Origin: Eubacteriaceae bacterium
GTDB taxonomy: Bacteria > Bacillota > Clostridia > Eubacteriales > Alkalibacteraceae
Length of the DNA: 64,000 nt
Assembly: GCA_049366695.1 (NCBI GenBank)
Contig: JBMNCR010000089.1
Location: 14,358-78,357, forward strand
Reading direction: 5' to 3'
The notes beneath the pieces were generated by a model that did no database searches, was not told the DNA's origin, and saw nothing but the letters and a program-made list of their open reading frames with translations. The translations under genes were made by a program, and so were the position numbers. Of the stretch, positions 40,889 through 62,599 are shown in pieces (positions within the stretch are counted from its first letter, which is position 1; each line of letters begins with the position of its first letter).

Positions 40889-41383
40889 ATGGATTTAATG
40901 TCTTTAAAGCAAGCAGTTGGGGATCTTGAAGAAGAAAAAGTGATGCAAGTACTTCAGGAATTTGTAGATTCCAATCCAACAGAAGATGAAGCACAAAAAG
41001 CAGTAGCAGCCTGCCAGGAAGGTATGGCAATGGTAGGAGATTTATATGAAAAGGGAAAATATTTTGTTGGAGATTTAATATTTGCTGGAGAGTTGTTAAC
41101 AGAAGCCATCGATTTAGGAATTGATCAGCCGGTCAATGCTTTTGTGGAAAAAGTGAAAGAAGTAAAACCGAATATTGTAGGGATGAGCGGAGTATTAACA
41201 TTAGCATTAGAAGGCATGAAGGATACGGTTGACGGTTTGAAAGAGGCAGGACTGAGGGATAGCGTTAAGGTTATTATCGGTGGCAATCCAGTAACAAAAG
41301 AAGCATGTGAACATATTGGAGCAGATAACTTTACAACAAATGCTGCAGAAGGTGTAAAAATAACACAAGGGTGGGTGAAGTAA
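40889..41383 (+). CDS. Corrinoid (B12-binding) protein with an in-frame internal deletion of the DxHxxG loop
   Basis: The N-terminal cap helix bundle (GMAMVGDLYEKGKYFVGDLIFAGELLTEAIDL) joins directly to DLGIDQPVNAFVEKVKEVKPNIVGMSG...VIIGGNPVT. The usual GxVxGDxHDIGKN..GFxV block is absent. The protein is 164 aa, against my recollection of about 210 aa for this family. Confidence 0.75.
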   Translation: MDLMSLKQAVGDLEEEKVMQVLQEFVDSNPTEDEAQKAVAACQEGMAMVGDLYEKGKYFVGDLIFAGELLTEAIDLGIDQPVNAFVEKVKEVKPNIVGMSGVLTLALEGMKDTVDGLKEAGLRDSVKVIIGGNPVTKEACEHIGADNFTTNAAEGVKITQGWVK

Positions 41384-42538
41384 ATGAATGATGTAATGAA
41401 AAAATTACAAGAAAAAAGAGAAAGAGTTGCTAAAACAATTCTCAGGGAAGAAGTAGATAAAGTACCTTTTTTATTAATAGCAGGGGAGTATCAAGCGTCT
41501 TATGTCGGTGTTGATGTAAAAGATGTAAATACGTATGAACAAGCTATGGAAATAAATATAAAATTTTATGAAGATATACAATACGATGTTTTAGCATATT
41601 GTTATATTCCCCATAATGTTTTTACGTCAAATTTTATTAGAATACTCGGTGGGGGAGCCCATGTTGTAGTTGATGGGATTAAACAAATCAATCCGGCAGC
41701 TGTTACCATTTTACAACCAGAAGAATATCCCGAATTGATAAAAGATCCCCTTAATTATCTTTTAGAAACCGTTTATCCCAGAAGATTTTCGACATTAAAA
41801 ATTGAAGATCCAGAGGAAAAAATTGAAAAAATAAAAGAGTTTATGGGGTTAATGAGTGGTCTTAATGAATATAGTGATTTGTATGAAAAGAATGGGATTC
41901 CATTGATAATGGGAGCTATATCTTATTATAATCCTATCGATTTAATAATGGATGTTTTGAGAGATTTTACGGGAGTGAGTCGAGATATTAGAAGATGCCC
42001 TGAACTAATAAGAGATGCCGGGCTTGCTATGGTTGAAGCATATAAATTAATGTCTGTAATGTCACCACCTAGGGATTACCAGACAGTTATTGTTCCTATG
42101 CATTTACCTTCTTTTATAAAACCAAAGGATTTTGAAAAGATTTACTGGCCTTCTTATAAAGCGATAACTGAAGCTTTGATTGAACAAGGGCATAATATAA
42201 TGTTTTTCTTTGAAAAAAACTATTCACATTTATATGATTATTTACAAGAACTACCACAAAAGGGGGTATTAGGTGTTTTTGAAGAAGACGATATTAGGGT
42301 TGTAAAGAAAAAACTAGGTAATACCATGGCAGTTGCAGGAGGATTATCATCTAATCTAATGCAATATGGAACGAAAGAAGAATGCATTAATCATGTTAAA
42401 GGGTTAATTGATGATCTAGGTCCAGGTGGTGGATATTTTATTACCAATGATGTACCTTTGATATCCCCTAATGATGCACGACCTGAAAATTTAAAAGCTG
42501 TTGCTGATTGTATTAACGATTATGGATATAACAAGTAG
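41384..42538 (+). CDS. Uroporphyrinogen decarboxylase (URO-D/MtaA) family methyltransferase
   Basis: 384 aa, starting 1 nt after the corrinoid gene stop. The C-terminal GPGGGYFITNDVPLISPNDARPENLKAV is typical of URO-D-family corrinoid methyltransferases. Confidence 0.7.
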   Translation: MNDVMKKLQEKRERVAKTILREEVDKVPFLLIAGEYQASYVGVDVKDVNTYEQAMEINIKFYEDIQYDVLAYCYIPHNVFTSNFIRILGGGAHVVVDGIKQINPAAVTILQPEEYPELIKDPLNYLLETVYPRRFSTLKIEDPEEKIEKIKEFMGLMSGLNEYSDLYEKNGIPLIMGAISYYNPIDLIMDVLRDFTGVSRDIRRCPELIRDAGLAMVEAYKLMSVMSPPRDYQTVIVPMHLPSFIKPKDFEKIYWPSYKAITEALIEQGHNIMFFFEKNYSHLYDYLQELPQKGVLGVFEEDDIRVVKKKLGNTMAVAGGLSSNLMQYGTKEECINHVKGLIDDLGPGGGYFITNDVPLISPNDARPENLKAVADCINDYGYNK

Positions 42539-43979: not shown

Positions 43980-44634
43980 ATGAAAAAATATTCACATTTA
44001 TTTAGTGCATATCGTATTAAGAATGTGACTTTTAGAAGCCGTATTTTTTGACTCCTACAGGGATGACTTACCCAAATGAATATACGGGAGAACCTGACTT
44101 TAAAACGGTTCTATTCTATGAAAAGAAAGCTCGTGGTGGAGCAGCGAGCGTAACACTTGGGGAAACGGCAATTAATGATGTTGATTGTGTACGTAGACCG
44201 AATGTAGACCGCATTAGACCTGATTTTGCTAGAATGATTTTACCAAAGAAAAGCTGGGTAAAAGTTACAGATGCCATCAAACGTCATGGAGCGGTACCTT
44301 CCATTCAATTATCTCACGCAAGTATGTTTGGTGAGCTAATTTTTATTAATGAGAATCAACCAATTGGTCCTGTTGATTTAGTAAAAAAAATGGAACAGTC
44401 GTTAGAGGTAGGAATGAGGATGATATGAAACGTATCGCCAATGATTTTTCTGAAACTGTTTGGTGTGCAAAAGATGCACGATTTCAAGAGGTAATACTTC
44501 ACTGTGGAAATGGTTGGTTGATTGGACAATTCTTATCACCACATTGCAATACTCGTACAGACAAATAAGGCGGACCTATTGAAAATAGAGCGAAATTTCC
44601 ACTTATGGTAATTGACGCGGTAAGTCAAAAAGTA
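43980..44634 (+). pseudogene. 5' fragment of a paralog of the OYE/Fe-S flavoenzyme gene, disrupted
   Basis: Nucleotide-level similarity to 48412-49068 is visible by eye. A premature TGA at 44049-44051 follows MKKYSHLFSAYRIKNVTFRSRIF, and further frameshifts and stops occur (for example TAA at about 44566). Confidence 0.85.
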
Positions 44635-44642
44635 ACTCATTA

Positions 44643-45011
44643 GGGACATGCATCATCGGAACAGTAGCAGGAGATCTGCATGACATTGGGAAAAACCTAG
44701 TATCCATGATGATTGAAAGTGCTGGATTTGATATGGTAGATCTAGGTGTAGACGTGCCCAAAGAAAAATTTGTGGAAGCCATAAAAGCAAATGACAATGT
44801 AAAGCTAGTAGCCTGTTCTGCACTGCTAACTACCACCATGCCTTCATTAAAAGAAACCGTAGAAGAAATCAAAGCCAGTGGATTAGAGGGATTTAAGGTA
44901 ATCGTAGGTGGAGCACCCATAACAGAAGAGTATGCTAATGAGATTGGTGCCGATGCTTATGTGCCAGATGCAGGTAGTGCCGGAGCAAAGGCCAAAGAAC
45001 TAATTTCGTAG
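44643..45011 (+). pseudogene. 3' two-thirds of a corrinoid-protein gene fused to the flavoenzyme fragment
   Basis: Encodes LGTCIIGTVAGDLHDIGKNLVSMMIESAGFDMVDLGVDVP...VIVGGAPITEEYANEIGADAY with an intact DxHxxG, but has no N-terminal cap domain or start context. Confidence 0.8.
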
Positions 45012-45281: not shown

Positions 45282-46613
45282 TCATTTGAAATTAGGATGA
45301 GGAATTGTTTCCACATCAAAATTCTCGTTTCTGTCTTCTCGGATATATGGAAATAGAAGAACTTTTGCCTTTATCTTCAATTGCCTTGTTCCAGGGTTTC
45401 CCCATAGGACTTCAACTATTTTTCCTTCAACAGCATAATCTTGATCTATGGTACACACGGAAAGCATTTCCCTGGTTTTAGAAGAGAGCATGCGTCCAGA
45501 GGAGGCACCTACCATCTTATCCCCATCATAAACTGCATCTATGTGCATCCCGCCATTATTACGTACATAATCATAGTCACTTACTAAATCCAAAATATCG
45601 CAACTGTTTCCAGCTTCAAATGCTGTAGCAATAACCTTTAACACATCATTTTTGTCCCAGATGAGATGAACCATAGTATTATGGTGTCCTTCCAATTCTG
45701 CTTTGAGGGCTTCTTTTCCAATAAAATCATGGTCAAATTTAATTAATTTCTCCCAGCCTAAATCAATGGGACTTCTGTAAATCAAATCAGATTTTCTATC
45801 AATACTTCCGCTGAGAACTGGCTTTTCATCAAAGGGTGTTGCAAAGTGTTCGGCGACTTGGGGGATGCTTCCTTCTGCATGGCAGTTGACGTAACCAAGT
45901 CGACCAAGCTCTTGAATGCCATATTCTTTACCAACTTCAAGAAGTTTATTATAAATGACTTCTGCATCCTCTATCTTGCCGTGGACTTCATACCCCAAAG
46001 TACCTGCCATTCCAGTTCTTAAGATGAATACATCTTTTCCTGCAATTTGAGCATCTTTGGTATACATGAATTTTATATCATGTAAATCTTTCTGTGTAGC
46101 AGCCTCAACAATTTCCAAAGAGCGGGGTCCACACATCTGATAAAAGACGCGTTTTTCTTTTGTACTTTCGCTAGTAAAATTATATTTATTTCCGACCATT
46201 TTATTCAGTAGTGCGGGATCAGGGAGGCACATAGAGATAAACTCATCCTCCGAGCGTCTTACTATAATTCCGTCCAATACAAGCTTTCCCTTATCGTTGC
46301 AGATTATAGTATGACGGGCTTTCCCCATAGGGAATTTTCTGAAGGTATTGACACTAACCTCCTCCATCATATCAAGATACTCTAAACCTTTTATATCGTA
46401 GAACATGAACGGATTTAAACCGGCATGCAAATAGCTGGTGTCGTGCCAACTGATTTCTTCATTGACCCATGTATTGTATGCAAAGGGAACAAGTGGCCAT
46501 TGCCCATTATTCATCGGTAACCATTTCCCTTCCGGGCAAACATATACTGTGTTTTTAGGGATGGTATTTGGTATATACGGTGACATCACAAGTTTTTTTG
46601 ATTCATTTTCCAT
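45282..46613 (-). CDS. GcvT-family, tetrahydrofolate-dependent aminomethyl/methyl-transferase, long LigM/DesA-like form (paralog 1)
   Basis: About 443 aa from the ATG at 46613 (RBS AAAGGAG). Motifs RTGMAGTLGYEVHG and IKFDHDFIGKEALKA. The layout resembles the long O-demethylase-type members rather than the roughly 360-aa GcvT. Confidence 0.7.
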   Translation of the reverse strand: MENESKKLVMSPYIPNTIPKNTVYVCPEGKWLPMNNGQWPLVPFAYNTWVNEEISWHDTSYLHAGLNPFMFYDIKGLEYLDMMEEVSVNTFRKFPMGKARHTIICNDKGKLVLDGIIVRRSEDEFISMCLPDPALLNKMVGNKYNFTSESTKEKRVFYQMCGPRSLEIVEAATQKDLHDIKFMYTKDAQIAGKDVFILRTGMAGTLGYEVHGKIEDAEVIYNKLLEVGKEYGIQELGRLGYVNCHAEGSIPQVAEHFATPFDEKPVLSGSIDRKSDLIYRSPIDLGWEKLIKFDHDFIGKEALKAELEGHHNTMVHLIWDKNDVLKVIATAFEAGNSCDILDLVSDYDYVRNNGGMHIDAVYDGDKMVGASSGRMLSSKTREMLSVCTIDQDYAVEGKIVEVLWGNPGTRQLKIKAKVLLFPYIREDRNENFDVETIPHPNFK

Positions 46614-46788
46614 TAGTACAACTCCTTTTAATTTATTAAACAAAACCGGTTTTGTTATTATATATAAGTATAATTCATACCTTCGCTGAAATATATGAAA
46701 TTTAGAACGAAAAAACACCATTGAATTGTGAAAAAATCCAAATCTGTGGTGTTTTTTATATTAAGGAAAAAAACAATCAAATACTATT

Positions 46789-47994: not shown

Positions 47995-48333
47995 TTTGCA
48001 TTCTACCTCACTGAATTAATTATAACTTTTGCATTAAAGTATCTAATTACAAAAGTATTGTTGTTTAAAGTTAATCCTATTATATACATTTAATACTGTA
48101 TTCCACAAATAATTCTGATATAATCGTGTCAATGTATTTAGGATAAAATAAAATACTTGTTCTAGATTATCAATTAGGTACCACTGAAAGGTGGTTTGTG
48201 TAACGACTTAATCTTTCCACTGAAGTTTTTTTATCTAAAAGTATTTTCTATGTTTTTGATATTTGTGTAGATTATTGTATATGTGTAGTTCGTCTATAAT
48301 GACTAAAAAGGAAGACTTGTATAGACTCTTTTG

Positions 48334-49068
48334 ACGATGACAATAAAGAGTGATAATTATATAATTATCAAAGAATTTCAAATATCTAATTTAATAATGG
48401 AGGAAAGTACAATGAAAAAATATCCACATTTATTTAGCCCATACCGTATTAAAAACGTAACTTTTAGAAATCGTATTTTCGCGACACCTACTGGAATGAC
48501 TTACCCAGATGAATATACGGGGGAACCAGACTTTAAAACAGTTTTATTTTATGAAAAAAAAGCTCGCGGTGGAGCAGCAAGCGTAACTCTTGGCGAAACG
48601 AAAATTAATGATGTTGATTGTGTACGCAGACCTAATGTAGACCGCATAAGACCTGATTTTGCTAGAATGATTTTACCAAAAAAAAGCTGGGTAAAAGTTA
48701 CAGATGCAATTAAACGTCATGGTGCGGTACCTTCCATTCAATTATCCCATGGAGGGATGTTTAGTGAGCCAGTTTTTATTAATGGGAATCAACCAATAGG
48801 TCCCGTTGATATGGTAAAAGAAAATGGAACAGTCGTTAGAGGTATGAACGAGGACGATATGAAGCGTATCGCTAATGATTTTGCTGAAGCTGCCTGGTGC
48901 GCGCAAGATGCAGGATTCCAAGAGGTAATGCTACACTGTGGACATGGCTGGTTGATTGGACAATTCTTATCACCACATTGGAATACTCGTACAGACGAAT
49001 ATGGCGGGCCAATTGAAAATAGAGCGAAATTTCCACTTATGGTAATTAATGCGGTACGTGAAAAAGTA
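48334..49068 (+). repeat. Segmental duplication, copy B (intact)
   Basis: Collinear with 43888-44634. Confidence 0.85.
48351..48370. promoter_or_regulatory. 20-bp perfect palindrome TGATAATTATATAATTATCA, candidate operator 42 nt upstream of the flavoenzyme start
   Basis: Exact palindrome lying between the divergent PucR paralog 2 and the flavoenzyme gene. It is conserved without change in the decayed duplicate at 43905-43924. Confidence 0.5.
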
Positions 49069-50370
49069 GGAGAAAACTTTATTATTGAAATCCGTATAAG
49101 TGGTGATGAACATCAGGAAAATGGATGGCCAATTGAAGATGTTATTAAATTTGCACATATGGTAGAAGGAAAAGTAGATTTAATTCATATATCTGCCGGA
49201 GACTACCACAATTCTGATCAATACTGTTTTTCAACTGTATTTATGCCCCATAACTGTAATGTTCATGTTGCAGAAGCACTGAAAAAAGGTGGTGTAAAAA
49301 CACCACTCGTAACCGTAGGTTCTATTAACGATCCTGAGGAAATGGAACGATTGATTGCAGAAGGAATTACAGATTTCGTAGCGATTGGCAGAGGTATCTT
49401 AGCAGATTCGGATCTTCCGAAAAAAATTCAATTAGGAAAAGAGGATGATATTCGTCCATGTGTACGTTGCTGTAATTGTATGGGTGGATTATATGATGGA
49501 TATTATCAATGTGATGTCAACCCGGTTGCTGGACAGGAAGCATATTTATTAAGAACACTAGACGTTGAAGAAAGCAAACGTGTATTAGTTGTAGGTGGAG
49601 GACCTGGTGGAATGGTGGCTGCTTTAACAGCTGCAAGTAGAGGACACAAAGTAACTCTGGTTGAGAAAAATGATAAACTAGGCGGAACACTACAATTCTC
49701 AGATATTGATTCTCATAAACAGGATTTAAGAAATTATAAAGATTACTTGATTCATCAGGTAGAAAAACATGGCGTTGATATTCGACTTAATACAGAAGCA
49801 AATATTGCACTGCTGGAGGAACTACAACCACAATCTATTATTGTTGCAACAGGTGCCCAGCCAAGAGTATTAAAGACAAAAGGGGCTGAAAAAGCATGTC
49901 ATGCAATAGATGCATATTACTCTCCTGAAAAAATAGGAAATAAAGTAGTTATGATCGGTGGAGGTTTAATTGGTTGTGAAGTAGCGTTACATTTAGCAGA
50001 ATTAGGTAAAGATGTGACTGTGATAGAAATAATCGATGAATTAGCAAAAGACGCAAATATCATTCATAAAGCATCATTAGTTGAAACTATGGAAATGATG
50101 AAAGATCTGGTACATGGAGTAACTAAAGCACAAGCAAAAGAAATTACGTATGCTGGTGTTACATATGTTGATCAAGATGGAAACGAACAATTCTTAGAAG
50201 CAGATACTGTATTATATGCAATCGGTATGTTACCAAATGACGATATTGTTGAACAGTTACGTGCTTGGGATGGATGGGAAACTTTCGTTCCTATCGGAGA
50301 TTGTACAGGAGCAAGTATTATTCGTAAAGCAATTCATGACGGGTATCACGCTGCAATAGATATTGTTTAA
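48412..50370 (+). CDS. OYE-like FMN / 4Fe-4S / FAD-NAD(P) flavoenzyme (2,4-dienoyl-CoA reductase, 2-enoate reductase, TMADH/DgcA/StcD architecture)
   Basis: LHCGHGWLIGQFLSP OYE motif, Cys cluster CVRCCNCMGG...C, VVGGGPGGMVAA and VMIGGGLIGCEVA dinucleotide folds. ATG at 48412 behind GGAGGAAAG. Confidence 0.85.
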   Translation: MKKYPHLFSPYRIKNVTFRNRIFATPTGMTYPDEYTGEPDFKTVLFYEKKARGGAASVTLGETKINDVDCVRRPNVDRIRPDFARMILPKKSWVKVTDAIKRHGAVPSIQLSHGGMFSEPVFINGNQPIGPVDMVKENGTVVRGMNEDDMKRIANDFAEAAWCAQDAGFQEVMLHCGHGWLIGQFLSPHWNTRTDEYGGPIENRAKFPLMVINAVREKVGENFIIEIRISGDEHQENGWPIEDVIKFAHMVEGKVDLIHISAGDYHNSDQYCFSTVFMPHNCNVHVAEALKKGGVKTPLVTVGSINDPEEMERLIAEGITDFVAIGRGILADSDLPKKIQLGKEDDIRPCVRCCNCMGGLYDGYYQCDVNPVAGQEAYLLRTLDVEESKRVLVVGGGPGGMVAALTAASRGHKVTLVEKNDKLGGTLQFSDIDSHKQDLRNYKDYLIHQVEKHGVDIRLNTEANIALLEELQPQSIIVATGAQPRVLKTKGAEKACHAIDAYYSPEKIGNKVVMIGGGLIGCEVALHLAELGKDVTVIEIIDELAKDANIIHKASLVETMEMMKDLVHGVTKAQAKEITYAGVTYVDQDGNEQFLEADTVLYAIGMLPNDDIVEQLRAWDGWETFVPIGDCTGASIIRKAIHDGYHAAIDIV

Positions 50371-52144: not shown

Positions 52145-53467
52145 ATGTCGAATCAAAATGAAAGAGATGTTATCGGTTACATGCATCAAACCCCAGATGT
52201 TCACTCTTATGCTAATGTATTTGGTAGTCTAAAACCTTGGGAAATTGACCCTTGGCAGGAGGCATCCATGTCATGGAAGGAATCCTCTTACATTCATACA
52301 GGAATTTCAAACTTTGGTGTTCGTTTTAAAGGGTCAGATGCTTTAGAGTTTCTGAGATATGCATCAACCAATAAAGTCGATAATTGGAAAATCAATCGTG
52401 GTAAACACTTGGTTTTTTGTGATGAAAATGGTTTGATTGCTACCCATGCATTAGTTAACCGCTTTGATGAAGATGAGTTTATTATGTACGCCGCAAATCC
52501 TCTTCAAATCTTTAAATTATTGAAACAAAAAGAATATAATATGGAAATGACAATGCCTGACTTCTTTATTTACCAGATGTCAGGTCCGCTGTCCCTTACA
52601 ATTATTGAAAAAGCCCTTGGTCAAGACTTGCATGATGTAAAGTTTTTAGAAAACAGAAAAGTGTACTTTCCACAGTTAGGCATTGAGGTTGAAGTTCAAC
52701 GTATTGGAATGTCAGGCACTTTAGCTTACGAAGTGAAAGGAGAGGGCAAGAGCGGTCCGGATGTTTATGATGCTCTCTATGAAGCCGGAAAACCTATGGG
52801 ATTAAAACGTCTTGGTTGGAGAACCTATATGCTCAATCACACAGAAGGAGGTTACCCTCAAGGAAATGGCAGTTTCGCTTACTCTGTTGATTATGATCCT
52901 GAATTAACCCCTTATGGTGGTGAGGCTTTGAATATGGGTAGTGTGGATCCAAAAGATTTACGTGCAAGAATGCGTACACCTTTTGAAGTTGATTGGGCTT
53001 GGATGGTTGATTTTAATAAAGGTGACTTCGTTGGGAAAGAAGCGTTAGAAAAAGAACGTGATAATCAAAAACGTAGGATTGTCACACTAAAATGGAATGT
53101 AGATGATATTGTAGATATTTATCGCTCACTTTATGAAAAGGATGAAGAAGCATATAAATACATGGAATATCCAATAGGCTATTTACAGCCAAGTGGTGGA
53201 AATGCTGACCTCGTATTAGATAAAGAGGGCAATCTTATCGGCATATCAAGTATTGTTGCTTATTCTAATTATTATCGTGAAACTATTTCGCAGTGTATTA
53301 TGGATATTGACAAGATTGAAGAAGGCAAAGAAGTTATCGTTCAATGGGGAGATTACGGACACCGTATCAAAAACGTCAGAGCAGAAATAGTTCGATACCC
53401 TTATTCAACATTAATAGAGAACAAAGACTACGATTTAAGTACTGTGCCAAAAGGAACAGAAGTGTAA
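52145..53467 (+). CDS. GcvT-family, tetrahydrofolate-dependent aminomethyl/methyl-transferase, long LigM/DesA-like form (paralog 2)
   Basis: 440 aa. Motifs RIGMSGTLAYEVKG and DFNKGDFVGKEALEK, plus the C-terminal segment KRRIVTLKWNVDDIVDIYRSLY..EEAYKYMEYP, characteristic of the long O-demethylase-like subgroup. Confidence 0.7.
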   Translation: MSNQNERDVIGYMHQTPDVHSYANVFGSLKPWEIDPWQEASMSWKESSYIHTGISNFGVRFKGSDALEFLRYASTNKVDNWKINRGKHLVFCDENGLIATHALVNRFDEDEFIMYAANPLQIFKLLKQKEYNMEMTMPDFFIYQMSGPLSLTIIEKALGQDLHDVKFLENRKVYFPQLGIEVEVQRIGMSGTLAYEVKGEGKSGPDVYDALYEAGKPMGLKRLGWRTYMLNHTEGGYPQGNGSFAYSVDYDPELTPYGGEALNMGSVDPKDLRARMRTPFEVDWAWMVDFNKGDFVGKEALEKERDNQKRRIVTLKWNVDDIVDIYRSLYEKDEEAYKYMEYPIGYLQPSGGNADLVLDKEGNLIGISSIVAYSNYYRETISQCIMDIDKIEEGKEVIVQWGDYGHRIKNVRAEIVRYPYSTLIENKDYDLSTVPKGTEV

Positions 53468-53906: not shown

Positions 53907-54350
53907 ATGACGTTAATAGACAAAAGAGAAGTAAGAAAATTGATGAAGGAAGGTAAGTAAAAAGATATGACAGTTATTCAAAGGTATATAGTGCACGTAA
54001 TTCGTAATTCAACGAGATATTTATCTTATAAAGATAGAAAAGTCTTTGTATCTGATTTAAAGCCCGTATATACAGCTATTGATGAAACCCAAACATTAGA
54101 AGCTCTATCAAATCTTGAAGAAAAATAGGGAGAAAAATATTATATTGCTATAAAACTTTGGAAAGATCATTGGAATGAAATAGCCACTATGTTTAAATAT
54201 CCTTAAGATATAAGAAGACTAATATATACAACAAATGCAATTGAAAGCTTTAATAGGCAGCTAAGGAAAGTAACTAAGTCAAAGAGCGTTTTTCCAACAG
54301 ATGAATCACTTTAAAAAATGTTATATTTAGCTTCATTAGTTAAGATTTGA
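53907..54350 (+). mobile_element. IS256-family (Mutator-like) transposase pseudogene, internally deleted, with three nonsense codons
   Basis: VIQRYIVHVIRNS..KDRKVFVSDLKPVYTA...EEK*GEKY...[52 protein letters not shown] matches the conserved C-terminal third of IS256 transposases. Confidence 0.75.
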
Positions 54351-54862: not shown

Positions 54863-56482
54863 ATGAAACTTAATGCAGATATCATATATGACAATCTCAG
54901 CCAATCCGTTATGATGGAGAGCTATGGTCACAAAAAAAAGGAACTCACACTTAAAAGACCTGAGTTCTATAATGGTTTAAGCCGCGAATTCAAATCCAAT
55001 CATATTTATATATCACTTGTTGACCGGCTCCATTTAGATCCAGTTTTTGGAGATGATGTTGTGGTTATCAGTGTTGGAGGCAATCCACCCATAACATATT
55101 TGGTTGATAAATGTGTTTGCTTCTCAATATTAGATAATACCGATTTATTGACTATTTTTAATTTAGTGCAGCAGATATTTGATAAATATGATGATTGGGA
55201 TACCGGGTTACAGAATATTATAGACACTACTGGAAGCATTAAGGAAATTGTTGAGCTTAGTTTTACTATATTTGGAAACCCGATTATTGTACTAGATCCT
55301 AACTTTAGATATCTAGCATATAGCAGCATTATTGATACTCAAGATGAACTAGCAAATTATCGTCCTGATAAAAATGGCACCATGCTTCTGAATTCGTTTA
55401 GTAAATTTGACAATAGCTATGGGACGAAAATATTTGCGAGGGAGCCATTATTACTGTCTTCACAGGAAGTAAAATATTTCATTATCAACCTCTTTGAAAA
55501 GAATGACTACGCCGGTAGTTTGACAATTCCATTTATTATCCAAAATCAACGACAGAGTGATATTGCACTGGCCCAATATTTGGCAAAAGTTATTGAAAAT
55601 TCACTGAAAAAAAATTCCACGATATTAAGCTCTAATGCGAATATTCTAAAGAGAATCCTTCAGGATCTACTAAATTGCTTTCCCATAGATTCAACCAAGA
55701 TGCACTATTTAAAGGATGATAGATTTACTGGGAAGTATATCTGCATTAAAATGTTTCTTGGATATCGTTCAAATAAGGTACCAGTTGAGTACATATGTAA
55801 TCATATAGAAAGTTACTTTTCTGGTTGTGTAGCTTTTGAATATGAATCAGTAATTGTAACATTTATTAATCTTGAAAAGATTTTTTGCGACGAAAAGATA
55901 CTAATAGACAAGATGAAAAAATTACTGCAGACAATGAATTTAAAAGCCGGTGCTAGTCATTCTTTTACTGATCTGTCAATGGCTCGACTTTATTACCGGC
56001 AAGCATGTATTGCTTTTGAAATGGGATCCTCAATCAACCTTGATCATATCTTTTACAAATTTGACGATTACGTTTTGATGTATATGATGTCACATTGTAT
56101 GGGTGAATTTCCTATAGATATTTTATTAACAAATGGCGTTTGTAAGCTTATAGAACATGATTTGACGTCGGACACTAATTATTTAAATACGCTGCGTACC
56201 TACTTGAATAACAATATGAATATAACCAAAACTGCAAAGGATCTCTATGTACATCGTAGTACCTTTTTGGAACGATTAAAACGCATCAAAAGATTATTAC
56301 AAATTGATTTAGAAGATCCCGACCAGAGGCTTCGTCTTCTAGTCGCACTTAAAATCATTGAGACTAATGAAAAAGTCAAAACTAAAATAAACAATATTGA
56401 ATTGATTGATCAAAATGGTTTTAATTCGGAAGATTCAAAAAAGTTACTAGAATTAGAAAGCATTTATAAAGAAAATCCTTAG
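54863..56482 (+). CDS. PucR family transcriptional regulator (paralog 4)
   Basis: N-terminus parallels paralog 1 (MKLNADIIYDNL versus MHLSLSIIKERL). C-terminal HTH ITKTAKDLYVHRSTFLERLKRI. Confidence 0.85.
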   Translation: MKLNADIIYDNLSQSVMMESYGHKKKELTLKRPEFYNGLSREFKSNHIYISLVDRLHLDPVFGDDVVVISVGGNPPITYLVDKCVCFSILDNTDLLTIFNLVQQIFDKYDDWDTGLQNIIDTTGSIKEIVELSFTIFGNPIIVLDPNFRYLAYSSIIDTQDELANYRPDKNGTMLLNSFSKFDNSYGTKIFAREPLLLSSQEVKYFIINLFEKNDYAGSLTIPFIIQNQRQSDIALAQYLAKVIENSLKKNSTILSSNANILKRILQDLLNCFPIDSTKMHYLKDDRFTGKYICIKMFLGYRSNKVPVEYICNHIESYFSGCVAFEYESVIVTFINLEKIFCDEKILIDKMKKLLQTMNLKAGASHSFTDLSMARLYYRQACIAFEMGSSINLDHIFYKFDDYVLMYMMSHCMGEFPIDILLTNGVCKLIEHDLTSDTNYLNTLRTYLNNNMNITKTAKDLYVHRSTFLERLKRIKRLLQIDLEDPDQRLRLLVALKIIETNEKVKTKINNIELIDQNGFNSEDSKKLLELESIYKENP

Positions 56483-56526: not shown

Positions 56527-56573
56527 AACAGCCTCCTTTTTACAGATGATTTACCTGTAAAAAGGAGGCTGTT
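56527..56573 (+). terminator. Long perfect hairpin (19-bp stem) after PucR paralog 4
   Basis: AACAGCCTCCTTTTTACAG atgatttac CTGTAAAAAGGAGGCTGTT with a weak T tract downstream. Confidence 0.6.
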
Positions 56574-57105: not shown

Positions 57106-57921
57106 ATGATTTGTAATCGATTTGAAAATAAGGTCGTATTAGTCGTTGGCGCGGGTGCCGGTATGGGCGAAGCAACTGCATTGCAATTTCTCAAAGAGGG
57201 TGCAAAAGTTATAGCTCTTGACATGTACAAGGATCGACTGGATCGACTTGAGGGGCAGGCTAATGGATTGAATGGTAGTCTTGAGATGTACCTTGGCGAC
57301 ATCACAGATGTCAAAACGGTGGAAGGCGTAGTCGACGTCATCACAAGGAAATATGGCACACTGGATTGTCTTGCTCATGTGGCAGGAGTTATGGATTTTA
57401 TGCTTACACCTGACATTTTGACTGATGAGATGTGGGATCGTGTCATGGATATCAACGTCAAGAGTGTATGGCGCATGGTCAAAACGGCTATGCCCCTTCT
57501 GAAAAACCATGAGGGTGATGCTGGGAGTGTTGCTATTGTTTCTTCACTCGGTGGATATGTGGGATCCTCATCTGGTACTGCATATATTGTTTCTAAGCAC
57601 GCTGTGGAGGGACTCATGAAGAATCTCGCTTTCTCTTATAGAGAGAATAATGTCCGTATAAACTGCGTAGCACCAGGTGCAATTGCTTCCGAAATTGTTG
57701 GTACTTCCGCACGTATGTTCCCCGAGTTAGAATATGATGCAGGATTATGCCCTGAAGGTATGGAAATCTATTTAGAAAATGGTATTGGACTAGTAAGACC
57801 AGATGATGCCTATGGAGAATCACAGGATATCGCTGATGCCATAACTTTCCTGTGCTCCCAGCAGGCCAAATTCATCAATGGGTCAAGTCTCATTGTTGAC
57901 GGTGGTTGGTACAGTGCATAA
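57106..57921 (+). CDS. Short-chain dehydrogenase/reductase (SDR)
   Basis: VVGAGAGMGEA cofactor motif, YIVSKHA catalytic YxxxK and NCVAPGAI. Clearly higher GC than the backbone. Confidence 0.9.
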   Translation: MICNRFENKVVLVVGAGAGMGEATALQFLKEGAKVIALDMYKDRLDRLEGQANGLNGSLEMYLGDITDVKTVEGVVDVITRKYGTLDCLAHVAGVMDFMLTPDILTDEMWDRVMDINVKSVWRMVKTAMPLLKNHEGDAGSVAIVSSLGGYVGSSSGTAYIVSKHAVEGLMKNLAFSYRENNVRINCVAPGAIASEIVGTSARMFPELEYDAGLCPEGMEIYLENGIGLVRPDDAYGESQDIADAITFLCSQQAKFINGSSLIVDGGWYSA

Positions 57922-57989: not shown

Positions 57990-59228
57990 ATGAATAAAAA
58001 AATAGATAAACGACTTCCAAGAGAAACCGGCAAAGACGTGATGCCCGAGCATGCGGCGATTAAAACTCCATGGGAAAAGCTGGTTTCATATCATGATGCG
58101 GCACACTACGCAAATCGTTACAATGCAGTAATCAGCGCCGCCATGTTGCAAGCATTACGAATTCTCGTACCCGACTATGTAGAAAGAGTTAAGGCTATGT
58201 GCAAAAATGCCTATGACAGAGTAAAAACACCATTTCTTACCCCTTACGGCGAAATGATGAAAGACGATCTCAATACCCATCCGTTTTTCAGGGGTAACTT
58301 CGTCGGTGCCCAAGTCGGCGACTTCGGCGACGAGTGCCTGCTTATGTGCGGTCGTGTCAATGACTTCGGCACTTACCGTGTGGAAAAGGAACTGGATACC
58401 TGTCCCTGGGATATCTTAGGATCTGAGATGGGTCGCGCCACCACCCAGTCGCTTTTAGGTAGCGCCGATGGACTAGCAACCTGGCTGCCATCTGGACCCA
58501 AACTTGATTATCATATGGTTGAAGCAAAGTGCTGTGGTGATCTTCACTGCCGAGTCGTGGCTGAAAGTCGCGATAAATTCCCAATGCCGCCCCATGAGCA
58601 GTGGGAATGTTATGGACCTATTGCCACAGACGATCAGATCAAATTCACGCCCGAAGAGGATTGTATGAAGGAACCCATGGTATTTCAAGAGGATTGCAAC
58701 TATAAATATGTTAACGGCACGTGTATGGAGAGTGATTCCAAGAGCCTATATCCAATGACTTATCAGTCGAATGGGACGTGCTATATCACACCGACAATCA
58801 ATGACTTAATCAATGATGGCACGGTTGACGAAAAATTTGCTGATCATGTGATTAAATGCGTATGCGAAGCTGCGGGCAAGGCTGCCTTTGGCGAGTTCTA
58901 TTCGAAGGAAGGCCTACGTAGCTGGCTCGGTGTTCCCCGGGACATCGACGACGGACGCGTCATGGGCGCCCATATTGAGATGTATCTGCAAAGCATGATA
59001 GCCGACTACACAGTCGAAGCATTCAATGCTGACGAGGTTATTTATGTAATTGACCGCACCAATCTGTCCTTCGCAGGCCCGAGATATATAGACGCATTGA
59101 TATCCACATGGTACGGCATGACTAAAACCCTTGTCAATGCTCAGTGGGCGCTGTGGGAAGAAGCTGGAGAAACCTCTGAGGATCAACTCCGTATCAAGAT
59201 TGCCAAGAAAGTTGACAAGTTATGTTGA
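57990..59228 (+). CDS. Cysteine-rich protein of unknown function (412 aa)
   Basis: Good RBS (AAAGGAGAAGG). Sits between the SDR and GcvT genes with 68-nt and 36-nt gaps. Cys motifs: TCPWD, KCCGDLHCRVV, WECYG, CNYKYVNGTC and KCVCEAAG. It bears only a loose resemblance to ATC-hydrolase-like proteins (xCPxxx...GDxxCxxxx). Confidence 0.7.
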   Translation: MNKKIDKRLPRETGKDVMPEHAAIKTPWEKLVSYHDAAHYANRYNAVISAAMLQALRILVPDYVERVKAMCKNAYDRVKTPFLTPYGEMMKDDLNTHPFFRGNFVGAQVGDFGDECLLMCGRVNDFGTYRVEKELDTCPWDILGSEMGRATTQSLLGSADGLATWLPSGPKLDYHMVEAKCCGDLHCRVVAESRDKFPMPPHEQWECYGPIATDDQIKFTPEEDCMKEPMVFQEDCNYKYVNGTCMESDSKSLYPMTYQSNGTCYITPTINDLINDGTVDEKFADHVIKCVCEAAGKAAFGEFYSKEGLRSWLGVPRDIDDGRVMGAHIEMYLQSMIADYTVEAFNADEVIYVIDRTNLSFAGPRYIDALISTWYGMTKTLVNAQWALWEEAGETSEDQLRIKIAKKVDKLC

Positions 59229-59264: not shown

Positions 59265-60281
59265 ATGTATAAAAATGTATACAAATACGATGAAATGAAG
59301 CGTACCGAGCATATGGCTGTCCGAGAAACGGTGGGTTGGTACTTATGGACACATCAGCTTTTGGAGGTCAAAGGAGAAGATGCCACAGCTTTTCTGGATA
59401 GGATGTTTGCAAACCCCATCGCCAACCTAAAAATCGGCGGCGCAAGATATACAACCATGCTAAATGAGAAAGCGGAAATCATTGACGATGTAGTGGTATT
59501 CCGAATGGAAGAGCAGAGATTCTGGATTTCAACCCTATTCCTGACCAATCTAACTGATTGGATTTCCAATCATAAAAACGGTTATAAGGTAAAATCCTCC
59601 GATATTACTGAACAGTACCATATGTTCGCTGTGCAGGGGCCTAGAGCAAAAGATCTTATCAACGCAATGGTGGAGAACAACGTGGACGATCAGCGTTTCT
59701 TTACAATTAGGGACAATAAAATTGATGGTATATGTGTCAAAATTAACCGAGGCGGTTTCACCGGCGAGAAATTCGGCTATGAGATATATGTTGCACTGGA
59801 AGATCTGCCCGCCATGGAGACCAAGCTGAAAGTCTGCGGCGAATCTTTCGGCGCCATCGAAGTAACGGATATACAAATCATGGCCTGGACACTGCCCACG
59901 GAAGCCGGCTTCTATTACATGCGTGACCTGATGTACACCAACCCGTTTGAGGTGGGTCTAGATCGCGGTATTAGCTGGGATAAGGATTTTATCGGAAAAG
60001 AGGCACTGCTGAAGATCAAAGATGAAGGTCCATCCCGCGAGATGGTCGGATTTACTATAGACGAGGACGACGTACATATCAACGCCAAGGATTTGGGCGG
60101 TCCCGGTACAGCTGTCATGCTGAACGGCGAAGAGATCGGTCGTGTGTCTAAATTTAATTATAGCTTTGTACTGGAGAAGAATATTGGCTATATCCTTGCC
60201 AAGAAGGGTGCAGTGAAGCCGGGCGATCATGTTGCCATCAAGTCTTATGATGCCGTCATTACGGACAAGGTTTTCATCTAA
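59265..60281 (+). CDS. GcvT-family aminomethyltransferase-like protein, short form (paralog 3)
   Basis: 338 aa with HMAVRETVGWYLW.., AVQGPRA, NRGGFTGEKFGYEIY and WDKDFIGKEALL, the classical GcvT fold motifs. Confidence 0.8.
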   Translation: MYKNVYKYDEMKRTEHMAVRETVGWYLWTHQLLEVKGEDATAFLDRMFANPIANLKIGGARYTTMLNEKAEIIDDVVVFRMEEQRFWISTLFLTNLTDWISNHKNGYKVKSSDITEQYHMFAVQGPRAKDLINAMVENNVDDQRFFTIRDNKIDGICVKINRGGFTGEKFGYEIYVALEDLPAMETKLKVCGESFGAIEVTDIQIMAWTLPTEAGFYYMRDLMYTNPFEVGLDRGISWDKDFIGKEALLKIKDEGPSREMVGFTIDEDDVHINAKDLGGPGTAVMLNGEEIGRVSKFNYSFVLEKNIGYILAKKGAVKPGDHVAIKSYDAVITDKVFI

Positions 60282-60642: not shown

Positions 60643-61923
60643 ATGATGAATGAAAAAATACTAGCATCAAATAAGATGAGGAGTAACACAATATTTTTCA
60701 TGTTAGGTTTGGGTATGCTGCTTGCAATGATTCCTTATTTAGGACCTGCAGTAGTTCTCCCAACATTAATGGTTGATCTTTCTATACCAAGTACTGCACT
60801 TGGATACGTCATTTCAATTTATTTGATAGTTAGTGGAATATGTATGTTTATAGGTAGCTATATACAAGAGAAGATTGGTTATCTCAATACTTATCATTTA
60901 GGAAATATCTCAATAACACTCGGTATCCTTGTTTCCGCAATTGCCCCTAACTTCCTTGTTTTTATGATAGGACGTGGGCTTTCTGGCTTTGGTTTTGGTC
61001 TTCTTTCAGCCGCCGGTGGTCCGATTCGAGCCATTTGGTTCAAAGATAAAAAATATGCACTGGCAAACAGCTTCAATCAAATTATGTCATGTGTTGGCAT
61101 TAGTCTTGCATTCGTCCTTATGACTAGCCTGTTGGCCATAACTGGATCATGGCGTAATGTTATGATGATCTATGCCAGCGGTTCTATAGTATATACAGTA
61201 GCATGTTTTTTCGTTATGAAGTATCCCGTAGGTGTCAAAGAAGCTCTCGAGCAGAAGAGAGAGGGAATTAAGTCTGGACAGATTGCAAAGCAAGAAAACA
61301 ATCTCATGCGTCCTTTCAAGTTCAAGGACTACTGGCTCATTTTAATTCACAACATTGTATATATTGCAGCCAATACCGCACTCCTCACCTATATGGTCGT
61401 ATACTTCAATCAAGAAGCAGGTATTTCTGTATCTGCTGCAGCATTGATCACAAGTCTGTTAACTATCTGTCAGATCATTGGCGCGTTGGTGGGAGGCTTT
61501 CTTGTCGCCCAGACTGGACGTAGGAAGATTTGGGTTATTATTTTTAGTGTTACCTACTCCTTGGCATCAATTACCATGATTTTAGCAGGCGGGAATTATT
61601 TTATAGTTATTAGCATGGCTGTAATTATCGGTATTTGTGCCTTTGCAAGAATTCCGGGCATCAGTATGTATTATGTTGAGTTGACTGATACATATGACCC
61701 ATCTCTGGTTGGACCTGCGGTTGCTATGGTAAACGGCATTCCAATGCTCGCTAATATTATTATCAGCGGACTTATTGGTGCTATGGTATTCAGTCCATTG
61801 GGATACGGTAAAACTCTTATTATCGTCTATGCAATGTGTTTAGCTAGTACTATCCCGCTATTTTGGCTAAAGAACATCGGACCTCGCGCTAAAAATGAAA
61901 TTCGTAACACTGAAAACGTTTAA
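60643..61923 (+). CDS. MFS transporter
   Basis: 426 aa with about 12 hydrophobic helices and a GRGLSGFGFG loop motif. Confidence 0.85.
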   Translation: MMNEKILASNKMRSNTIFFMLGLGMLLAMIPYLGPAVVLPTLMVDLSIPSTALGYVISIYLIVSGICMFIGSYIQEKIGYLNTYHLGNISITLGILVSAIAPNFLVFMIGRGLSGFGFGLLSAAGGPIRAIWFKDKKYALANSFNQIMSCVGISLAFVLMTSLLAITGSWRNVMMIYASGSIVYTVACFFVMKYPVGVKEALEQKREGIKSGQIAKQENNLMRPFKFKDYWLILIHNIVYIAANTALLTYMVVYFNQEAGISVSAAALITSLLTICQIIGALVGGFLVAQTGRRKIWVIIFSVTYSLASITMILAGGNYFIVISMAVIIGICAFARIPGISMYYVELTDTYDPSLVGPAVAMVNGIPMLANIIISGLIGAMVFSPLGYGKTLIIVYAMCLASTIPLFWLKNIGPRAKNEIRNTENV

Positions 61924-62202: not shown

Positions 62203-62424
62203 ATGGCAATAACACGTAAAAGTAAGATCAAAGAAATTGTTGCAAATACTGATGCACTGGCAATTGTAAACAAATATTTACCGGGAATAGACCCAACTGA
62301 ACCAAAATTAAAACCAACAATGGGGATGTCCCTAAAAGCATTATGCGCATTCCCTCAGACAGGTATCAGTAAGGACAAAGCAAAGGAATTGTTTGAGGAG
62401 CTGGAAGAGGCAAACATCGAGTAG
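62203..62424 (+). CDS. Small hypothetical protein (73 aa)
   Basis: Strong RBS (TAGGAGGT) and a hairpin downstream at about 62470-62505. No motif recognised. Confidence 0.5.
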   Translation: MAITRKSKIKEIVANTDALAIVNKYLPGIDPTEPKLKPTMGMSLKALCAFPQTGISKDKAKELFEELEEANIE

Positions 62425-62599
62425 TTCATATATGAATGAGACGCTCTAATAGTATACATAATTCTCTTTTCCATGGCATTGGACTGCCGTGGAAGAGAGT
62501 TAACTTTATTAGCAATCGTTGATAAGTATAATTCACTCCTTTACAGATGTATATGAAATTCAGTATGAAAAGACCGTTTATTTGTAAAAAAGTCCAAAC

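Follow-up and report, generated by a model that had tools for sequence, protein, structure and literature searches.

A tandem V4R/Bet3-like protein family paired with a GcvT-family folate-binding protein in anaerobic bacteria, and its possible part in tetrahydrofolate-dependent C1 transfer

The locus described here lies in a 64,000-nt stretch of DNA from a Eubacteriaceae bacterium (assembly GCA_049366695.1, contig JBMNCR010000089.1, positions 14,358 to 78,357 of the forward strand), which is referred to as the window and whose positions are used throughout. The gene under study, termed X, occupies 57990..59228 on the plus strand as an ATG-to-stop open reading frame (ORF) that encodes a protein of 412 aa, a member of an unnamed family with two predicted tandem V4R/Bet3-like modules. 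It is preceded by a strong Shine-Dalgarno ribosome-binding site (AAAGGAGAAGG) and lies between a short-chain dehydrogenase/reductase (SDR) gene (57106-57921) and a gene of the GcvT family (59265-60281), the latter being spaced 36 bp from the X stop codon. No transmembrane-like hydrophobic segment was found in the protein (maximum 19-residue Kyte-Doolittle mean, 1.42), and the ORF, its neighbors and its hydropathy agree with an original prediction, made from the DNA sequence, that a 412-aa protein without a transmembrane helix is encoded between SDR and GcvT genes. The 15 Cys residues account for 3.6% of the protein, compared with 0.5–1.9% in five neighboring proteins, and all seven Cys motifs quoted in that prediction were found in the translation, namely TCPWD, KCCGDLHCRVV, WECYGP, EEDCMKEP, EDCNYKYVNGTCMESD, NGTCYI, and KCVCEAAG. 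The GC content at third codon positions was 0.50 in X, 0.53 in the GcvT-family gene and 0.39 in the SDR gene, vs. 0.21–0.36 in the neighboring genes and a GC content of 0.31 for the whole window; the higher values of X and GcvT suggest that the cassette core was taken up horizontally, and recently.

Although X had been taken for an orphan, 588 homologues were retrieved at E<=1e-3 in a search among 5.8 billion proteins, and an exhaustive HMMER scan of 1.84 billion representatives returned 115 clusters at the 50% identity level. An identical protein is already on record (P0001, labelled 'MAG: Eubacteriaceae bacterium'). The best 120 homologues are all of approximately 410–450 aa with 55–100% identity, the nearest non-identical one being 87% identical, and every one of them is unnamed or 'hypothetical' and carries no Pfam domain, while full-length family members in the HMMER scan reach down to 23–35% identity. 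A 671-aa protein, P0196, that was considered as a long family member was rejected as an unrelated repeat protein. Pfam (at E<=0.1) and NCBIfam contained no family that matched X, and scans with X and 23 diverse relatives up to E<=10 yielded nothing relevant, the PF14196 and V4R models included; a single-sequence search of the PDB with X gave a chance match only. By taxonomy, the family spans Bacillota, Coriobacteriia, Spirochaetota, and Anaerolineales. Carriers of X together with a GcvT gene number in the hundreds, often with several copies per genome, and are anaerobes of gut, rumen, poultry, and termites; those named belong to Blautia and other Lachnospiraceae, Eubacteriaceae, Coriobacteriia, and Treponema, from gut and sediment habitats. 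Cultured carriers include Alkalibacter rhizosphaerae, A. mobilis, Blautia schinkii DSM 10518, Qiania dongpingensis, Paratissierella segnis, and Fusibacter paucivorans. No description of the family or of its operon was found in a literature search.

To describe the fold, an AlphaFold2 model of the whole protein was built on 61 homologues, along with a second model of its C-terminal module alone. The whole model had a predicted local distance difference test score (pLDDT) of 89.6 and a predicted template modeling score of 0.89, and displayed two similar alpha/beta modules, each comprising four helices, a beta-hairpin, a helix, and a second beta-hairpin. According to the modeled secondary structure, module D1, which is V4R/XylR-N-like, covers residues ~20-197 (58047..58580, plus strand), and module D2, which is Bet3/V4R-like and has a flexible tail ending in C412, covers residues ~256-412 (58755..59225, plus strand; pLDDT 90.3 when modeled alone). 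They are joined by a linker of residues ~198-255 (58581..58754, plus strand) that is mostly coil, has pLDDT values of 74–89, and holds C207, C225, C236, and C245. When the whole model was compared with the PDB by Foldseek, the natural-protein matches were all Bet3, H-NOX, MopR, DmpR, and PoxR, with E values of 3e-3 to 5e-2 and TMt of ~0.5, none of which is strong, and a few de novo designed proteins were matched too. For the D2 model, TMq was 0.62 with TRAPPC3/Bet3 (E=9e-5) and 0.54 with both DmpR and MopR.

Sequence profiles pointed in the same direction for D1. The top PDB match was the PoxR sensor domain, both for the family profile (E=0.04) and for the profile of D1 alone (E=0.09); the alignment covers the PoxR ...E-C-V-G-C-G-H-P-H-C-R... 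motif plus the preceding helix Cys. An hhalign comparison of D1 with the XylR A-domain, for which XylR was taken from plasmid pWW0 and the segment was verified as XylR_N plus V4R, gave E=1.8e-4 at a probability of only 48% over 94 columns that include the XylR V4R region. No internal sequence repeat was detectable between D1 and D2 by hhalign, and the idea of a tandem duplication is therefore drawn from the fold only. Judged by the fold similarity of the models, X falls into the V4R / XylR-N / Bet3 / H-NOX fold class, and we conclude that it is, as modeled, a tandem of two V4R/Bet3-like modules that represents a remote and unrecognized branch of the V4R superfamily and belongs to none of the present Pfam families, PF14196 included. 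The Foldseek search of an AlphaFold model, which the original prediction had proposed as a check, thus returned this class only, and no well-characterized unrelated family claims the protein.

Conservation of the Cys residues was then followed across the family. Within the close clade, four Cys are invariant (C71, C138, C187, and C290) and two more are almost invariant (C120 and C412), whereas C207, C225, C236, C245, C264, and C292 are variable, and family-wide only C138, C148 (C181 instead in X), E178, and C187 are conserved. Hence the description of X as cysteine-rich held for its 15 Cys, a subset of which is conserved, but at the level of the family it reduces to C138, C148/C181, and C187 together with E178. 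In the diverse set of 23 sequences, C138, E178, and C187 are invariant, C148 is at least 90% conserved, and G183, H186, and R188 are nearly invariant. Position 148 is Cys in 58 of 61 sequences and Gly in the other three, X included; all three G148 sequences carry C181, where the remaining relatives have Gly. This compensatory swap speaks for a single functional site made up of these conserved residues. Other charged or polar residues that are invariant in the two modules are R66, D111, D114, R130, E132, K133, E134, E192, D321, and R323. Toward the C-terminus, C290 in a D2 helix is conserved in the close clade only, and C412 is the last residue (59223-59225; ...KIDKFC-COOH), being Cys in 60/61 close relatives, located in a low-confidence tail, and missing from a distant clade that is GcvT-linked.

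The conserved residues of D1 outline a putative Zn-type metal site (58401..58550, plus strand), composed of C138, position 148, E178, C181/C182, H186, and C187. C148 and C187 align with C151 and C185 of PoxR, which by the C-x22-E-x2-C-x7-C spacing correspond to the MopR zinc ligands C155 and C189, and the same spacing is visible in XylR in the hhalign alignment. The MopR zinc lies ~10 Å from the phenol pocket and is regarded as structural (PMC9556785). For D1, a modified Cys3-Glu/His site is the most economical reading, most likely with a structural zinc as in MopR, PoxR, and DmpR. The PF14196-type likeness suggested earlier for X pointed in roughly the right direction, in that the fold and profile comparisons lead to the V4R fold class and the GCGDxHC motif aligns with the PoxR/XylR metal motif; a match to PF14196 itself was not obtained.

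The original prediction had also proposed an Fe-S partner, and the same residues can be read in that way, with the Cys3-Glu site holding a [4Fe-4S] or [2Fe-2S] cluster for redox or Lewis-acid chemistry. A cluster with one iron left open could be held by three invariant Cys and a Glu, the carriers live strictly anaerobically, and the Cys content of 3.6% would suit such a protein. A recognized Fe-S spacing (e.g., CxxCxxC...C) is absent from X, however, although a non-canonical cluster is conceivable from the sequence, most of its cysteines are unconserved, the aligned site of MopR binds zinc (PMC9556785), and no ferredoxin, flavoprotein or other redox partner recurs in the cassettes, so that we consider an Fe-S or redox-active Cys protein very unlikely.

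The partner gene (59265..60281, plus strand) encodes a T-protein-like, GcvT-family folate-binding protein of 338 aa (PF01571, E=9e-42, plus PF08669). Its best PDB match is the Thermotoga maritima T-protein (1woo, E=1.7e-38), followed by dimethylglycine dehydrogenase, DmdA, sarcosine oxidase, and trimethylamine N-oxide (TMAO) demethylase, the tetrahydrofolate (THF) domain of the last at E=3e-15. Residues D74-D75 of the partner align with D95-D96 of the T. maritima protein, and the pair is at least 97% conserved in 55 partners; it contains the Asp that we take to be the T-protein catalytic residue next to folate N10. The partner lacks about 20 N-terminal residues of T-proteins, and its scores are below every NCBIfam equivalog cut-off (127 bits vs. 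235.85 for TIGR00528, and 158.5 vs. 300 for NF001567), which indicates a GcvT-family member other than the housekeeping T-protein.

Because the partner is closest to true T-proteins, keeps the catalytic Asp and is shortened by ~20 residues at its N-terminus, X might act as a one-carbon (C1) carrier comparable to the glycine-cleavage H-protein, with a Cys thiol such as C412 carrying an S-CH2-X adduct to the partner; the C-terminal Cys of 60/61 close relatives, presumably in a flexible tail, would suit this role. Yet a distant GcvT-paired clade has no C-terminal Cys, a gene for loading such a carrier was not seen among the cassette genes, and X has neither H-protein similarity nor a lipoyl domain (PF01597), its fold being V4R/Bet3-like and not a lipoyl barrel. 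We rate a carrier function as highly improbable.

The linkage of X to the GcvT-family gene was examined in 80 loci from one-genome-per-species contigs plus individual homologue look-ups, which together comprise 87 X copies. Among the 79 X copies with room downstream, 76 are directly followed by a GcvT homologue on the same strand, with a gap of 18–93 bp in 75 copies and of 296 bp in one. The pairing extends to distant homologues of 23–30% identity in two of four cases (P0150 and P0148, both 26–27% identical). Seen from the other side, homologues of the GcvT partner number 782 at E<=1e-30, a family size similar to that of X, and all three GcvT relatives that were looked up on long contigs (62–78% identity) have X directly upstream. 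No natural X-GcvT fusion was seen when sought in the homologue hit lists. In 40 SDR/X/GcvT triplets, half of which have the order SDR-X-GcvT and half X-GcvT-SDR, the pairwise distances of X and GcvT were correlated with r=0.94, compared with 0.63 for X and SDR and 0.60 for GcvT and SDR, and the mean divergence was 0.41 for X and 0.39 for GcvT. The association with GcvT-family genes that the original prediction had proposed to check by co-occurrence and co-evolution is accordingly present, and very strong, in adjacency, in the reverse look-ups, and in the distance correlation. Neither the fold class nor the general concept of joining a GcvT module to one that releases C1 units is new; the apparent novelty lies in the family itself, in its build from tandem V4R modules, and in its almost obligate association with a minimal enzyme of the T-protein type.

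Copy number and gene arrangement vary among the carriers. A Treponema sp. metagenome-assembled genome (MAG; L002, 8001-13633) has tandem pairs in the order X-GcvT-SDR-X-GcvT-MFS (MFS, major facilitator superfamily transporter), and two to four X copies occur on different contigs in MAGs of Lachnotalea, Lachnospiraceae, and Merdimonas. This expansion of paralogous pairs suggests a range of related substrates. A homologue of 26% identity stands in a variant cassette of the order X-GcvT-alpha/beta-hydrolase-SDR (L086, 229-4421), in which the hydrolase may be a sign that part of the family uses substrates containing an ester. In L091 (4732-5968), two ORFs of 200 and 215 aa that overlap each other take the place of an intact X, the break being at approximately residues 189-198; a natural domain split was considered and rejected, since the break falls inside the last D1 strand, and a frameshift or assembly error is probably the cause. 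In Alkalibacter rhizosphaerae (L090, CP071444, 2894-9240), where X is 78% identical, the order is a minus-strand PucR gene, X, GcvT, SDR, and a 74-aa ORF. Behind the cassette, at this single locus only, stands a divergent gene resembling that of ketopantoate hydroxymethyltransferase (PF02548, E=3e-33, but well short of the panB equivalog cut-off), which encodes another methylene-THF-dependent aldolase-type enzyme.

The pairing of X and GcvT is kept across regulator types, these being PucR mostly, AraC in Treponema, and LysR in L087, and this bears on the question of whether X is a non-catalytic ligand or redox sensor, i.e., a stand-alone double V4R protein that answers to the substrate or to thiol redox state by regulating the GcvT enzyme or the transcription factor of the cassette. 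Sensing and the binding of hydrophobic ligands are the usual functions of V4R domains (PMC2253512), the closest relatives of X at the sequence level are the phenol and xylene sensor domains, and the redox-sensitive DNA binding of Methanosarcina MsvR is reported to be modulated by cysteine residues, in a paper with 26 mentions of the V4R domain (PMC3729527). The linkage of X, however, tracks GcvT and not the regulator; X is located inside the operon near GcvT with gaps of ~20-60 bp, the PucR regulators have sensor regions of their own, and a Pfam scan of X found no DNA-binding or output domain. A purely sensory role is therefore judged quite unlikely.

X could instead be a free-standing enzyme of the hydrolase or lyase type, as has been claimed for the ATC hydrolase family, that performs its own step, e.g., ring opening or cleavage of a C-heteroatom bond, after which GcvT acts on the product and no complex is formed. 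The family is highly conserved, both modules have many invariant charged or polar residues, and the operon consists of SDR, X, GcvT, and a transporter only, perhaps with one step each. In contrast, no match to PF14196 or to any enzyme family was obtained with the 23 relatives, and the extreme adjacency to GcvT together with the X-GcvT correlation of 0.94, vs. 0.63 for X-SDR, fits a subunit pair better than a free-standing enzyme. We regard this alternative as unlikely, though deserving of attention.

The ligand-binding type of its modules with their probable structural metal site, the co-inheritance with GcvT, the short, inducible cassette with an SDR and a transporter, and the occurrence in anaerobes whose livelihood is plant- or host-derived matter point to substrate recognition, and probably bond breaking, as the task of X. 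We tentatively favor, with reserve, the reading that X handles the substrate as one subunit of a two-component C1 transferase that depends on THF but on neither cobalamin nor O2. A putative X–GcvT complex with joint catalysis is supported by the genomic adjacency, the reverse look-ups, and the co-divergence of the two proteins; the physical complex, the catalytic role of X, and the direction of C1 flow are what we infer from this pattern. In the proposed mechanism, X would bind a small-molecule substrate and probably perform or assist the cleavage of the bond to its C1 group, and it would then offer the C1 unit to its T-protein-like GcvT partner, which would load it onto tetrahydrofolate. The NAD-type SDR may oxidize or re-reduce a hydroxyl of the same substrate, either activating it (e.g., by converting an alcohol to a ketone beside the C1-bearing group) or processing the product, while the MFS protein would import the substrate and the PucR-type regulator would control the cassette. 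Since the partner is T-protein-like and its Asp is conserved, the evidence leans to a transfer at the formaldehyde (methylene) level, with a methyl transfer of the LigM/DmdA type being possible. In this Eubacteriaceae genome, the cassette would then stand among several demethylation modules that supply folate with C1 units.

Several points weigh against this reading. The V4R likeness is remote (Foldseek E values of 1e-2 to 1e-4, hhalign 48%, no Pfam match), and most V4R-type domains known so far serve for sensing or as scaffolds rather than for catalysis (PMC2253512). The metal site of X is a model only and zinc is the presumed metal, and the canonical Glu and middle-Cys ligand positions (E174 and C177 in PoxR) are not conserved, being M176 and A179 in X, for which E178, C138, C182, and H186 are available as substitutes. 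As to the pairing, P0211 has no adjacent GcvT gene on its short contig, P0138, also on a short contig, is followed by a gene other than GcvT, and co-divergence of neighboring genes can reflect shared inheritance alone. Compared with the original prediction, the proposal of a substrate-recognizing partner in a two-component C1-transfer enzyme has been strengthened and is, as a conjecture, better founded: no unrelated known family accounts for X, its homologues retain conserved cysteines, and the association with GcvT holds elsewhere.

A bolder version of the preferred two-component reading would see in X and GcvT an anaerobic enzyme for C1 removal that is cofactor-light and of a new class, a 'T-protein without an H-protein', which we consider possible but rather doubtful. 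Here, the tandem-V4R subunit would bind a plant- or host-derived small molecule that the SDR activates, and it would release or hand over a C1 unit at the formaldehyde or methyl level straight to tetrahydrofolate. Possible donors of this unit are an S/N/O-CH2-X group, a methylenedioxy or O-methyl substituent, and a hydroxymethyl-ketone. Candidate substrates considered include methoxylated or methylenedioxy aromatics and O-methyl-inositols, as well as N-methyl amino alcohols, tropane-type esters, thiazolidine-type formaldehyde adducts, and hydroxymethyl-ketones cleaved by a retro-aldol reaction.

The rest of the cassette is made up of an NAD-type SDR, a regulator that is usually of the PucR type, and in many cases an MFS transporter. 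A PucR-family regulator (54863..56482, plus strand; PF13556 HTH_30, E=1.6e-22) precedes the cassette and is co-directional with it here, whereas it is divergent in most related loci, and a PucR-like gene occurs within 5 kb of X in 40 of the 46 related loci with room. A bidirectional hairpin (56527-56573) lies between the PucR gene and the cassette. The first cassette gene encodes the classical SDR (57106..57921, plus strand; PF13561/PF00106, E~1e-45), the translation of which contains a GAGAGMG glycine motif, an Asp at the end of beta-2 (ALD), and a Y-x3-K motif; by general SDR rules, it is predicted to be an NAD-preferring dehydrogenase. Its nearest solved relatives are assorted alcohol and terpenol dehydrogenases and are uninformative for the substrate. 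At least 50 of 67 related copies have an SDR gene on the same strand no more than 2.5 kb away, on either side of the X-GcvT pair. Downstream of GcvT, an MFS transporter (60643..61923, plus strand; PF07690, E=5e-32) is the probable substrate importer, and MFS genes recur in the cassettes L001, L002, L004, L006, L089, and L091.

A 73-aa ORF downstream of the MFS gene (62203..62424, plus strand), with no Pfam or NCBIfam match, is a possible fifth cassette member. Its homologues (70–110 aa as called, most of 71–74 aa) were present in 28 of 93 sequences (92 loci and the window), always on the X strand and usually ~2.7-2.9 kb upstream of X. The cassette ends at a terminator-like hairpin (62464..62499, plus strand; 15-bp stem with 7 GC pairs), identified by a consensus scan only. 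When 333 unlabelled neighboring ORFs were clustered, no additional enzyme recurred from which the substrate could be read, and the small 73-aa ORF was the only recurrent one; beyond the X-GcvT pair, the recurrent cassette genes are SDRs, MFS transporters, and regulators, with no other enzyme.

Upstream in the window, the segment 39181-53467 is a 'demethylation island'. It contains genes for a corrinoid (B12-binding) protein (40889-41383), an MtaA/uroporphyrinogen-decarboxylase-like methyltransferase (41384-42538), two LigM/DesA-like GcvT proteins (45282-46721, minus strand, and 52145-53467), and a flavoenzyme with old yellow enzyme (OYE) and Pyr_redox (pyridine-nucleotide-disulphide) parts (48331-50370). 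That a Eubacteriaceae genome carries THF-dependent aryl demethylases of the LigM type is noteworthy in itself. PucR-type regulators are interspersed, and the whole window has six of them. Fragment-like short ORFs, recognized by eye, resemble an OYE-type N-terminus (44048-44428), a B12-binding domain (44706-45011), and a piece of a transposase (53967-54128); their position in ORF-poor gaps points to gene decay or rearrangement. Scanning the entire window with Rfam revealed neither riboswitches nor other RNAs.

GcvT-fold THF-dependent demethylases, comprising LigM, DesA, DmdA, Tdm, and the sarcosine and dimethylglycine enzymes, provide a cobalamin-independent microbial C1 harvest. To our knowledge, all described GcvT-fold demethylases are self-sufficient or fused to a flavin or zinc module. 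If the X-GcvT pair is an enzyme, it would therefore represent a new two-component architecture, would probably act on an unrecognized dietary or host substrate whose C1 units feed acetogenesis or gut folate metabolism, and would give a function to a family without a Pfam or NCBIfam model. Were the notion of a T-protein without an H-protein true, gut acetogens and fermenters would gain a cobalamin-independent C1-harvest route, and the V4R/Bet3 fold its first catalytic role. The cultured carriers make a hypothesis on the pair directly testable.

Among known systems, X shares its alpha/beta fold class with the A-domains of the sigma-54 aromatic sensors XylR, DmpR, MopR, and PoxR (XylR_N PF06505 plus V4R PF02830), and the metal motif of PoxR and XylR aligns with the ...E-x3-C-G-D-x-H-C-R... 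segment and the helix Cys of D1. These sensor domains are small-molecule-binding modules with a Cys3-Glu zinc site, of which the site in X would be a modified version. Unlike them, X has no Pfam-level match, has two ligand positions shifted and an extra invariant Cys (C138), is doubled in its module, lacks an AAA+ or DNA-binding output, and is encoded inside a catabolic operon beside an enzyme rather than at a promoter under its own control. Bet3/TRAPPC3 is the best structural match of D2, but the sequence identity is 10–14% and X is unconnected to vesicle tethering. The ATC hydrolase family PF14196, which we take to have a similar C...GDxxC pattern and possibly to share a Pfam clan with V4R, differs in length, the X family being about twice as long and having two modules. 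V4R and Bet3 are regarded as homologous and as binding hydrophobic ligands (PMC2253512).

On the side of the folate partner, the glycine cleavage T-protein likewise needs a second protein that presents the C1 unit, and it is the best match of the partner, with the Asp kept; in contrast to glycine cleavage, no P-, H- or L-protein genes are nearby and X has no lipoyl domain. LigM, DesA, and DmdA transfer C1 groups from small molecules to THF with the GcvT fold and independently of cobalamin, and two LigM/DesA-like genes are present in the window, but these enzymes need no partner, and LigM and DesA are larger (453–461 NCBIfam model positions vs. 338 aa). In TMAO demethylase (Tdm), a Zn-containing catalytic core makes formaldehyde, and a tunnel connects it to a GcvT-type THF domain (PMC13619132). 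Tdm is a single polypeptide, whereas X and GcvT are separate genes to which an SDR is added, and neither the Pfam and NCBIfam scans nor the Foldseek results of X give a link to the Tdm catalytic core. Both systems nevertheless combine a Zn/Cys-containing, non-redox module that releases C1, putatively so in X, with a GcvT-type folate module that catches it at the formaldehyde level, and by this analogy Tdm would be the closest mechanistic precedent for the proposed two-component enzyme.

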